Positions 29,660 through 36,032 of a stretch of DNA of 64,000 nt are shown in pieces (position 1 is the first letter of the stretch; each line of letters starts with the position of its first letter). The position numbers and the translations under genes were made by a program. This DNA is from Escherichia coli (GTDB lineage: Bacteria; Pseudomonadota; Gammaproteobacteria; Enterobacterales; Enterobacteriaceae). The notes under the pieces are model-generated. The model did not search any database. It was not told the origin of the DNA and saw only the letters and a list, made by a program, of their open reading frames with translations. The DNA lies in assembly GCF_044324875.1 (NCBI RefSeq), contig NZ_CP172185.1. One strand, 5' to 3'.

Positions 29660-31894
29660 ATGGTTGCGGTAAGAAGTGCACATATCAATAAGGCTGGTGA
29701 ATTTGATCCGGAAAAATGGATCGCAAGTCTGGGTATTACCAGCCAGAAGTCGTGTGAGTGCTTAGCCGAAACCTGGGCGTATTGTCTGCAACAGACGCAG
29801 GGGCATCCGGATGCCAGTCTGTTATTGTGGCGTGGTGTTGAGATGGTGGAGATCCTCTCGACATTAAGTATGGACATTGACACGCTGCGGGCGGCGCTGC
29901 TGTTCCCTCTGGCGGATGCCAACGTAGTCAGCGAAGATGTGCTGCGTGAGAGCGTCGGTAAGTCGGTCGTTAACCTTATTCACGGCGTGCGTGATATGGC
30001 GGCGATCCGCCAGCTGAAAGCGACGCATACCGATTCTGTTTCCTCCGAACAGGTCGATAACGTTCGCCGGATGTTATTGGCGATGGTCGATGATTTTCGC
30101 TGCGTGGTCATCAAACTGGCAGAGCGTATTGCTCATCTGCGCGAAGTAAAAGACGCGCCGGAAGATGAACGCGTACTGGCGGCAAAAGAGTGCACCAATA
30201 TCTACGCGCCGTTGGCGAACCGTCTTGGGATTGGACAACTGAAATGGGAGCTGGAAGATTACTGCTTCCGTTATCTCCACCCGACCGAATACAAACGCAT
30301 CGCAAAACTGCTGCATGAACGCCGTCTCGACCGCGAACACTATATCGAAGAGTTTGTCGGCCATCTGCGCGCTGAGATGAAAGCTGAAGGCGTTAAAGCT
30401 GAAGTGTATGGTCGTCCGAAACACATCTACAGCATCTGGCGCAAAATGCAGAAAAAGAACCTCGCCTTCGATGAGCTGTTTGATGTGCGTGCGGTACGTA
30501 TTGTCGCCGAGCGTTTACAGGATTGTTATGCCGCACTGGGGATAGTGCACACTCACTATCGCCACCTGCCGGATGAGTTTGACGATTACGTCGCTAACCC
30601 GAAACCAAACGGTTATCAGTCTATTCATACCGTGGTTCTGGGACCAGGTGGCAAAACCGTTGAGATCCAAATCCGCACTAAACAGATGCATGAAGATGCA
30701 GAGTTGGGTGTTGCTGCGCACTGGAAATATAAAGAGGGCGCGGCAGCTGGCGGCGCACGTTCGGGACATGAAGACCGGATTGCCTGGCTGCGTAAACTGA
30801 TTGCGTGGCAGGAAGAGATGGCTGATTCCGGCGAAATGCTCGACGAAGTACGCAGCCAGGTATTTGACGACCGGGTGTATGTCTTTACGCCGAAAGGTGA
30901 TGTCATTGATTTGCCTGCGGGATCAACACCGCTGGACTTCGCTTACCACATCCACAGTGATGTCGGACACCGCTGCATCGGGGCAAAAATTGGCGGGCGC
31001 ATTGTGCCGTTCACCTACCAGCTGCAGATGGGCGACCAGATTGAAATTATCACCCAGAAACAGCCGAACCCCAGCCGTGACTGGTTAAACCCAAACCTCG
31101 GTTACGTCACAACCAGCCGTGGGCGTTCGAAAATTCACGCCTGGTTCCGTAAACAGGACCGTGACAAAAACGTTCTGGCTGGGCGGCAAATCCTTGACGA
31201 CGAGCTGGAACATCTGGGGATCAGCCTGAAAGAAGCAGAAAAACATCTGCTGCCGCGTTACAACTTCAATGATGTCGACGAGTTGCTGGCGGCGATTGGT
31301 GGCGGGGATATCCGTCTCAATCAGATGGTGAACTTCCTGCAATCGCAATTTAATAAGCCGAGTGCCGAAGAGCAGGACGCCGCCGCGCTGAAGCAACTTC
31401 AGCAAAAAAGCTACACGCCGCAAAACCGCAGTAAAGATAACGGTCGTGTGGTGGTTGAAGGTGTCGGTAACCTGATGCACCACATCGCGCGCTGCTGCCA
31501 GCCGATTCCTGGAGATGAGATTGTCGGCTTCATTACCCAGGGACGCGGTATTTCAGTACACCGCGCCGATTGCGAACAACTGGCGGAACTGCGCTCCCAT
31601 GCGCCAGAACGCATTGTTGACGCGGTATGGGGTGAGAGCTACTCCGCCGGATATTCGCTGGTGGTCCGCGTGGTGGCTAATGATCGTAGTGGGTTGTTAC
31701 GTGATATCACGACCATTCTTGCCAACGAGAAGGTGAACGTACTTGGCGTTGCCAGCCGTAGCGACACCAAACAGCAACTGGCGACCATCGACATGACCAT
31801 TGAGATTTACAACCTGCAAGTGCTGGGGCGCGTGCTGGGTAAACTCAACCAGGTGCCGGATGTTATCGACGCGCGTCGGTTGCACGGGAGTTAG
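29660..31894 (+). CDS. relA: GTP pyrophosphokinase RelA, (p)ppGpp synthetase I
   Basis: 744-aa ORF ending DVIDARRLHGS. Confidence 0.95.
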   Translation: MVAVRSAHINKAGEFDPEKWIASLGITSQKSCECLAETWAYCLQQTQGHPDASLLLWRGVEMVEILSTLSMDIDTLRAALLFPLADANVVSEDVLRESVGKSVVNLIHGVRDMAAIRQLKATHTDSVSSEQVDNVRRMLLAMVDDFRCVVIKLAERIAHLREVKDAPEDERVLAAKECTNIYAPLANRLGIGQLKWELEDYCFRYLHPTEYKRIAKLLHERRLDREHYIEEFVGHLRAEMKAEGVKAEVYGRPKHIYSIWRKMQKKNLAFDELFDVRAVRIVAERLQDCYAALGIVHTHYRHLPDEFDDYVANPKPNGYQSIHTVVLGPGGKTVEIQIRTKQMHEDAELGVAAHWKYKEGAAAGGARSGHEDRIAWLRKLIAWQEEMADSGEMLDEVRSQVFDDRVYVFTPKGDVIDLPAGSTPLDFAYHIHSDVGHRCIGAKIGGRIVPFTYQLQMGDQIEIITQKQPNPSRDWLNPNLGYVTTSRGRSKIHAWFRKQDRDKNVLAGRQILDDELEHLGISLKEAEKHLLPRYNFNDVDELLAAIGGGDIRLNQMVNFLQSQFNKPSAEEQDAAALKQLQQKSYTPQNRSKDNGRVVVEGVGNLMHHIARCCQPIPGDEIVGFITQGRGISVHRADCEQLAELRSHAPERIVDAVWGESYSAGYSLVVRVVANDRSGLLRDITTILANEKVNVLGVASRSDTKQQLATIDMTIEIYNLQVLGRVLGKLNQVPDVIDARRLHGS

Positions 31895-31989
31895 TCTTAC
31901 ATAGCTGGATATGGCGTCAGCCGTATCCAGCGATATCTTTTACTCGAAGGTATTACACCTGACAGACCCGCAATTTTCAGGACAATTCA

Positions 31990-32781
31990 ATGAATCAAAT
32001 CGACCGTTTGCTCACTATTATGCAGCGCCTGCGCGACCCGGAAAACGGCTGCCCGTGGGATAAAGAGCAGACATTTGCCACCATTGCGCCTTACACCCTT
32101 GAAGAAACCTACGAAGTGCTGGACGCCATCGCCCGTGAAGATTTTGACGATCTTCGCGGTGAACTGGGCGATCTGCTATTCCAGGTGGTGTTTTACGCGC
32201 AAATGGCTCAGGAAGAAGGGCGCTTTGACTTTAATGATATTTGCGCTGCTATTAGCGATAAATTAGAGCGTCGCCATCCGCATGTTTTTGCTGACAGTTC
32301 TGCCGAAAACAGTAGTGAAGTGCTTACCCGTTGGGAGCAAATCAAAACCGAAGAGCGCGCGCAGAAAGCGCAGCATTCAGCGCTGGACGATATTCCTCGT
32401 AGTTTACCGGCTTTAATGCGTGCGCAAAAAATCCAGAAACGTTGCGCCAACGTTGGTTTCGACTGGACGACGCTTGGTCCGGTAGTCGATAAAGTCTACG
32501 AAGAGATCGACGAGGTGATGTACGAGGCGCGGCAGGCTGTTATCGACCAGGCTAAACTGGAGGAGGAAATGGGTGACCTGCTGTTTGCCACGGTCAACAT
32601 GGCACGCCATTTAGGGACAAAAGCAGAGATTGCACTACAAAAAGCCAATGAAAAATTCGAGCGCCGTTTTCGCGAAGTGGAGCGTATTGTTGCCGCGCGT
32701 GGACTGGAAATGACAGGTGTTGACCTCGAAACAATGGAAGAAGTCTGGCAACAGGTAAAACGGCAGGAAATTGATCTCTAA
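31990..32781 (+). CDS. mazG: nucleoside triphosphate pyrophosphohydrolase MazG
   Basis: 263-aa ORF beginning MNQIDRLLTIMQRLRDPENGCPWDKEQTF. Confidence 0.95.
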   Translation: MNQIDRLLTIMQRLRDPENGCPWDKEQTFATIAPYTLEETYEVLDAIAREDFDDLRGELGDLLFQVVFYAQMAQEEGRFDFNDICAAISDKLERRHPHVFADSSAENSSEVLTRWEQIKTEERAQKAQHSALDDIPRSLPALMRAQKIQKRCANVGFDWTTLGPVVDKVYEEIDEVMYEARQAVIDQAKLEEEMGDLLFATVNMARHLGTKAEIALQKANEKFERRFREVERIVAARGLEMTGVDLETMEEVWQQVKRQEIDL

Positions 32782-32993
32782 GGGAATTACGTGGTCAAGC
32801 GCGATTTGTGTCATTTTTTAAATGACAAGCGCTTGATTTGCGTCAAAAACATTTACCCCAAAGGGGCTATTTTCTCACTCCTGATTTCAATAGTGCGCTG
32901 GCGAAGAGGAGGGATAATGAAAGTTTGTGGCACAGGTCATGTTCGGGTATACTGCTTTCCCGTCCTGGTTATTCCATCGTCTTTTCAACCTAA

Positions 32994-34646
<1,653 letters not shown>

Positions 34647-34718: not shown

Positions 34719-36032
<1,314 letters not shown>

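Follow-up and report, generated by a model that had tools for sequence, protein, structure and literature searches.

An FNR site centred near -41.5 is the class II arrangement of FNR-activated promoters. The two genes considered here, pyrG (CTP synthase) and eno (enolase), are both essential and heavily studied; to our knowledge, no transcriptional regulator has been established for pyrG of Escherichia coli, and text searches of the literature found no paper that discusses the spacer between mazG and pyrG.

An FNR box in this spacer has nonetheless been listed, and both FNR, an oxygen-sensing regulator, and IHF occupy the site in vivo (Myers et al., 2013). Table S6 of that study gives TTGACGCAAATCAA, the reverse complement of TTGATTTGCGTCAA, near pyrG at U00096.2 2907851, under an FNR ChIP-seq peak, and records IHF ChIP-chip enrichment that overlaps it. 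The peak was called by three ChIP-seq algorithms and by ChIP-chip (Table S5), while Table S9 describes pyrG as having an FNR peak, no FNR-dependent change of expression in anaerobic glucose minimal medium and no other known regulator; the site belongs to the category of peaks without known output (Myers et al., 2013). The conservation of the box and its promoter-like geometry, which are described below, are a modest addition to that published site.

The starts of pyrG transcription have been mapped close to the gene. A start at -47, with GGTATACT as its -10 element, was obtained by 5'RACE (Mendoza-Vargas, 2009), and the pyrG 5'UTR clone of Adams et al. (2021), based on dRNA-seq, begins at CCCGTC (-50), which is position 32959 of the window, as the whole 64,000-nucleotide stretch of E. 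coli DNA analysed here is called. These data come from aerobic cultures and show the proximal promoter only. A Rho-dependent 3' end 36 nt inside pyrG was annotated as 'uORF' (Adams et al., 2021).

The gene order in the window is relA-mazG-pyrG-eno, without mazEF. Positions are those of the open reading frame list and of the RefSeq annotation of an identical strain:

29660-31894: relA
31990-32781: mazG
32779-32781, plus strand: TAA stop codon of mazG, with the hairpin beginning 14 nt later
33009-34646: pyrG
34734-36032: eno

The mazG-pyrG spacer measures 227 nt and is 99% identical to that of K-12 (a window position w corresponds to NC_000913.3 position 2942675 - w). Within the species the region is uniform, the 451 bases around the hairpin being 95-100% identical in 5425 of 5426 complete E. 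coli genomes. Unlike in K-12, the mazEF toxin-antitoxin genes are missing at the relA-mazG junction (31895-31989); this contiguous junction was found in 1006 of 5425 complete E. coli genomes, and in the others the query was split into two places.

An earlier note on this DNA had described an 8-bp stem with flanking direct repeats just after mazG, and had offered a mazG terminator or a part of pyrG leader control as its possible function. Its anatomy was borne out when the sequence was read: the stem is formed by TGTCATTT (32809-32816) and AAATGACA (32820-32827) around a TTT loop (32817-19), and the flanks carry CAAGCGCGATTTG (32796-32808) and CAAGCGCTTGATTTG (32826-32840). A repeat search gave 100% complementarity for the 8-nt arms of this upper stem, and it also found an outer inverted repeat absent from the note, a perfect 8 bp between TCAAGCGC (32795-802) and GCGCTTGA (32829-36). 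The features of the region are as follows:

32795-32836, plus strand: composite inverted repeat (hairpin) of 42 nt, made of the outer arms and the nested upper stem, -16.2 kcal/mol
32796-32813, plus strand: direct-repeat copy 1, CAAGCGC--GATTTGTGTCA, apparently a degenerate copy of the FNR-box region, 1.5 bits with the FNR matrix
32826-32845, plus strand: direct-repeat copy 2, CAAGCGCTTGATTTGCGTCA, which includes the 10-bp palindrome CAAGCGCTTG and most of the FNR box
32855-32867, no strand assigned: small variable GC hairpin ACCCCAAAGGGGC, -5.6 kcal/mol, terminator-like on the minus strand only

The upper stem by itself reaches only -5.3 kcal/mol, compared with the -16.2 kcal/mol of the composite hairpin. 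In its 79-nt context the region folds at -23.1 kcal/mol (z = -2.75), a value equalled by 1 of 200 shuffles, and the 51-nt core has a z of -3.84 against shuffled controls. The two flanks align as a gapped direct repeat (copies 1 and 2 above) with a score reached by 0 of 5000 shuffles, part of this repeat being due to the 10-bp palindrome that sits within the right-hand copy. The hairpin is a real inverted repeat, beyond what chance would give. Each of 5425 E. coli genomes has it at a single place, and it is therefore not a dispersed palindromic repeat of the REP or ERIC kind, a candidate that was rejected; Rfam covariance models gave no match with E <= 10 between 31800 and 33200. As to the small GC hairpin, on the minus strand GCCCCTTTGGGGT followed by AAATGTTTTT was called terminator-like. 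Its stem differs from genus to genus, with what looks like some compensation (CCCC/GGGG, CGCC/GCGG-like, CCCG/CGGG); 63% of cells are paired, and the register shifts.

The right-hand part of the hairpin runs into a group of protein-binding and promoter-like elements:

32833-32846, no strand assigned: FNR box TTGATTTGCGTCAA, equal to TTGACGCAAATCAA at K-12 U00096.2 2907851-64, from the matrix, its conservation and the ChIP peak listing
32826-32838, minus strand: IHF core AATCAAGCGCTTG, a perfect match to the consensus WATCAANNNNTTR, with a T5 tract 6 nt upstream on the minus strand
32845-32854, plus strand: AAAAACATTT, nearly invariant in the alignments, between the FNR box and a variable spacer
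32868-32873, plus strand: nearly invariant -10-like hexamer TATTTT, 21 nt downstream of the FNR box, a distance free of indels in 54 sequences
32878-32882, plus strand: predicted start of a distal FNR-dependent pyrG transcript, placed from geometry only, with the FNR centre at -40.5 or -41.5

The box departs from the FNR consensus TTGAT-N4-ATCAA at one of 10 positions. With a matrix trained on the other 62 sites that Myers et al. (2013) list as ChIP-bound, the pyrG site being left out, it scores 16.4 bits, against a training median of 15.3 and 11.2 for the next best site in the 64-kb window. An equally strong site was present in 16 of 200 shuffled 64-kb windows, and the motif alone is thus only suggestive. 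The ChIP signal has to be read with similar care: its summit falls at window position 32886, 46 bp off the box and near a well-expressed promoter, and such regions can enrich spuriously; FNR peaks within eno (window 35181-35194 and the K-12 eno region) were removed as expression artefacts (Myers et al., 2013). The same study reports an anaerobically increased sigma-70 peak within pyrG (U00096.2 2906894), which bears on the trust to be placed in the pyrG peak. The IHF core consensus has 8 matches in the window for 2.8 expected; this one overlaps the FNR box and combines the WATCAANNNNTTR core with an A/T tract and published IHF enrichment, the features by which an IHF site is recognised. The columns in which genera differ coincide exactly with its four Ns, and AAAAACATTT may possibly be the A/T element of the same IHF site.

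The conservation of these elements was followed in mazG loci taken from 80 Enterobacterales species, from which the mazG-pyrG spacers were extracted and alignments of 44 and of 54 Enterobacteriaceae spacers were built. In neither alignment is conservation centred on the hairpin. The 54 spacers share a nearly invariant block, AACAAG-N4-TTGATTT-NN-GTCAAAAACATTT (32824-32854), which is followed by about 11 variable bases and then by the conserved GCTATTTTC (32866-74); the 11 nt before TATTTT vary freely. The FNR box is kept at 16.4-20.5 bits in 54 of 54 spacers, with variation limited to the central N positions. The second conserved region of the spacer is the proximal pyrG promoter with the 5'UTR. 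The left arm of the hairpin is moderately conserved, and most genera have TGTGATTT paired with AAATAACA or AAATGACA in the upper stem, which leaves a mismatch: 45 of 51 distinct orthologues do not form pair 31-43, and only E. coli and E. albertii have a perfect stem. The conservation for which the earlier note had called is accordingly there on the right-hand side, in all 54 spacers, and missing from the hairpin as such, whose upper stem is perfect only in Escherichia and whose arms show no covariation.

Several other observations were made in the orthologous spacers. In many genera (loci L030, L049, L060 and others) TTT(G/A)CGATCAA in the left flank recurs on the right, in direct orientation, as the TTT(G/A)CGTCAA of the FNR box; the repeat joins alignment columns 7-17 and 56-65, and the choice between G and A agrees in Enterobacter and Mangrovibacter, not in Klebsiella. 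An ERIC-like insertion of about 125 nt is present in locus L015 (3395-3535) and also in L018, L025, L026 and L040, and shorter insertions are present in L028 and L020. The ERIC-like sequence contains GTGACTGGGGTGAG...GCGGCTTGAAG and has about 77% identity to several intergenic places per E. coli genome. In the several genera that carry them, the ERIC-like insertions lie invariably downstream of an intact FNR box/-10 module.

The same module can be traced outside the Enterobacteriaceae. In Erwinia and Pantoea (Erwiniaceae), whose spacer is otherwise unalignable, a GTGAyNNNNrTCAA box (11-15 bits) is equally far from the pyrG ATG, and TAGGCT, TAAGGT, TAATCT or TACTCT follows it by exactly 22 nt. 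Only T-12, A-11 and T-7 are conserved in this hexamer, and the sigma-70 -10 element is conserved in the same manner (T, A, final T). Pectobacterium, Serratia and their relatives lack the module. No -35 hexamer is present at 16-18 nt from TATTTT in the sequence, which fits an activator-dependent promoter. Judging from this arrangement of motifs, an FNR-dependent distal pyrG promoter is most likely the function of the conserved block; its activity and start site are what we infer from the box, the spacing and the hexamer. It counts against such a promoter that the predicted start falls on pyrimidines (CTCC).

Other candidates for the region were examined by eye and rejected. A minus-strand FNR promoter would read CACAAA or ACACAA at its -10 positions, and for sigma-32, sigma-E and sigma-54 motifs, as for PurR, RutR, CRP and TyrR operators, the spacing or half-sites were unfit or the matching bases unconserved.

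Downstream of these elements lies the promoter to which the published starts belong:

32925-32962, plus strand: proximal pyrG promoter, with TTGTGG at 32925-30, a 17-nt spacer, TATACT at 32948-53 and mapped starts at 32959 and 32962

The last base of the hairpin, 32836, is at least 120 nt upstream of the mapped start (32959-32962). Being upstream of the mapped starts and of the start predicted near 32880, the hairpin is therefore outside any pyrG leader, and an attenuator was rejected, as the hairpin does not lie between a transcription start and the start codon. Of the earlier suggestion of pyrG control, what stands is that the stretch is part of the upstream control region of the gene, with its FNR box and IHF core; what falls is the role in an RNA leader.

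Even in Pectobacterium, Serratia and Brenneria, with a spacer that is otherwise unalignable, hardly any change is seen in the pyrG 5'UTR (32959-33008) or in the proximal promoter (32925-32953). The pyrG transcript begins in a C-run (CCCGTC), which hints at leader-level control of CTP synthase. A 31-codon upstream open reading frame (32917-33012) has a strong Shine-Dalgarno sequence, GAGGAGG (32906-12), and a stop codon that overlaps the pyrG ATG as ATGA; it starts upstream of the mapped pyrG start and therefore requires an upstream transcript. The frame is maintained from Escherichia through Klebsiella and Enterobacter, is shifted in Buttiauxella and Cedecea, and has AGG for ATG in Siccibacter. 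With these frameshifts, the loss of the ATG in Siccibacter and the non-synonymously variable codons in the promoter spacer, a conserved peptide was rejected.

Taken together, these observations lead us to regard it as somewhat better than an even chance that the hairpin is not an RNA element and is instead a by-product of a duplicated, palindromic protein-binding region, whose core is an FNR/IHF site with a class II distal promoter. The stretch, duplicated and internally palindromic, would lie at the distal edge of the DNA that controls pyrG, with its functional core in the right-hand part, namely the FNR box (32833-46), the overlapping IHF core (32826-38, minus strand) and TATTTT (32868-73). 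Without oxygen, FNR bound at about -41 would recruit RNA polymerase to a class II promoter with its start near 32880, and the distal transcript would run on across the constitutive proximal promoter and into pyrG-eno; IHF would either bend the DNA or compete at the FNR site. Relative to that start, the left arm spans -86 to -79, the upper stem -72 to -54 and the right arm, which overlaps the box, -52 to -45. What lies at about -86 to -54, namely the left arm with the AT-rich upper stem, would then represent a degenerate tandem copy of the box and A/T-rich upstream DNA, and the perfect upper stem would be a trait of the Escherichia lineage only. As a decayed copy of the box the left half lacks the TT of TTGAT and scores 1.5 bits, and no second FNR site was found there, the best score in any orthologue being 2.6 bits or less. 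The hairpin itself would be a geometric consequence of the duplication, because the duplicated unit contains a palindrome.

A more elaborate version of this mechanism, which we put forward as speculative and doubtful, would have an anaerobic distal pyrG-eno promoter, shared by Enterobacteriaceae and Erwiniaceae, produce a 128-nt leader with the strongly initiated upstream frame; oxygen would set the levels of CTP synthase and enolase through translational coupling and the Rho-dependent stop 36 nt into pyrG, and the inverted repeat would limit read-through.

Alternatively, the hairpin could act on the relA-mazG transcript, either as an intrinsic terminator that is weak or partial or by stabilising the 3' end; it would then insulate pyrG from transcription arriving from upstream, and would share its 3' arm with the FNR/IHF site by coincidence, a reading that we judge unlikely. 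Its position 14 nt past the mazG stop and its stability (-16.2 kcal/mol, z = -3.8) speak for this, as does the folding of the orthologues (median z of -2.4, 53% with z < -2), in five genera of which (Klebsiella, Enterobacter, Cedecea, Mangrovibacter and Pseudescherichia) the long-range outer stem is kept despite a diverged loop. A Rho-independent terminator was defined as a G+C-rich stem-loop directly followed by a U-tract with at least 5 U in 8 nt; the tail here is UUUGCGUC, and in TTTGCGTC 4 of 8 nt are T, only 3 of them contiguous, and the terminator scan of the plus strand of the window did not call the composite hairpin, although its tail score (-3.65, against -7.15 for an all-T tail) is marginal and not hopeless. 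In Enterobacter a local 5-bp hairpin, TTGCG/CGCAA, with a T-rich run was called terminator-like, but it shows no better covariation than shuffles. Nor did the composite, small GC and local left-arm hairpins give any convincing excess of covariation over controls, or either stem a single compensatory substitution across the 54 spacers: in that alignment sequence identity alone accounts for the 88% pairing of the outer stem, the rare double changes are G-U oddities, and the right-arm substitutions GCGATTGA, GCTCTTGA, GCGGTTGA and GCGTTTGA are uncompensated on the left. The long-range stem is lost in Salmonella, most Citrobacter, Kluyvera and Siccibacter, and the Salmonella spacer contains no terminator-like site. 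The transcript ends that the earlier note proposed to map are also against it, since the Term-seq lists of Adams et al. (2021) have no 3' end at the hairpin or anywhere between K-12 2909630 and 2910995 (pyrG +36 to mazF); these lists are thresholded, 'mazG' is absent from all four supplementary files, and a 3' end of this weakly expressed gene could miss the threshold. The mazG terminator of that note, with its three contiguous Us, negative scan, missing published 3' end and lack of compensatory changes, does not hold up, and the hairpin most likely functions as no RNA element, which we infer from these tests. What keeps a weak terminator or an RNA-stabilising role alive is that a (G/A)TCAAGCGC left arm is retained in distant genera despite the divergence of the loop, which the FNR-promoter model does not account for. 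A change of the left arm only, TCAAGCGC to AGTTCGCG, would spare the FNR and IHF sites.

It is also conceivable, and in our view rather improbable, that FNR and IHF bind to an architectural or silent site with no distal promoter, and that the hairpin and repeats are neutral remnants of an old duplication, either tandem or inverted. The direct repeat does resemble a decayed duplication, the published start data show no distal start, and the site was placed among the peaks without known output, with no FNR-dependent change in pyrG expression (Myers et al., 2013). This independence of total pyrG expression from FNR could arise because the strong constitutive promoter masks a minor distal one, and the strict conservation of the box, its fixed spacing to an invariant TATTTT and the TAnnnT kept independently in Erwiniaceae together make neutral or purely architectural DNA unlikely. 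Finally, the palindrome TGTCA-N9-TGACA (32809-27) might be the operator of a dimeric regulator in Escherichia, judging from the perfect 8+8 dyad of E. coli and E. albertii; nearly all other genera have an imperfect version (TGTGATTT / AAATAACA), no known motif matched the dyad by eye, and this last proposal is very hard to credit.

Two families of Enterobacterales share the box, its spacing and a -10-like element, and with this conservation the FNR peak at pyrG, so far a site in supplementary tables without known output, becomes a concrete and cheaply testable hypothesis of an anaerobic distal promoter. More generally, an eye-catching hairpin at the end of a gene can be a by-product of palindromic protein-binding DNA and not a terminator. 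Current understanding is not overturned, and the finding is largely ordinary.

Compared with known systems, the mazG hairpin resembles Rho-independent terminators in being a stable stem-loop just past a stop codon, and differs from them in its short U-tract, its 6x1 internal loop and its lack of a mapped 3' end and of covariation. With the pyrimidine leader attenuators (pyrBI and pyrE of E. coli, and the reiterative-transcription attenuator of B. subtilis pyrG) it has in common a position upstream of a pyrimidine biosynthesis gene; unlike them, it lies upstream of every mapped or predicted pyrG start and not in the leader. The IHF site is like others, such as those flanking FNR/NarL-dependent promoters, in its perfect WATCAANNNNTTR core, in varying only at the Ns, in its T-tract 6 nt upstream and in its ChIP-chip enrichment. 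Unlike those flanking sites, the pyrG core shares TTGAT with the FNR half-site, and FNR and IHF would therefore compete and not bind side by side; in Erwiniaceae the IHF core is not kept, whereas the FNR-like box is. The class II FNR promoters (narG, nirB, dmsA and yfiD site I at -40.5) differ from the pyrG site in that its start and FNR dependence are predicted, in that the IHF core overlaps one half-site and in that a strong constitutive promoter of the same gene follows about 80 nt downstream. With these same promoters it shares a TTGAT-N4-ATCAA-type box centred 28.5 bp before the -10 hexamer, the lack of a -35 hexamer, A/T-rich DNA upstream of the box and anaerobic occupancy by FNR in vivo.
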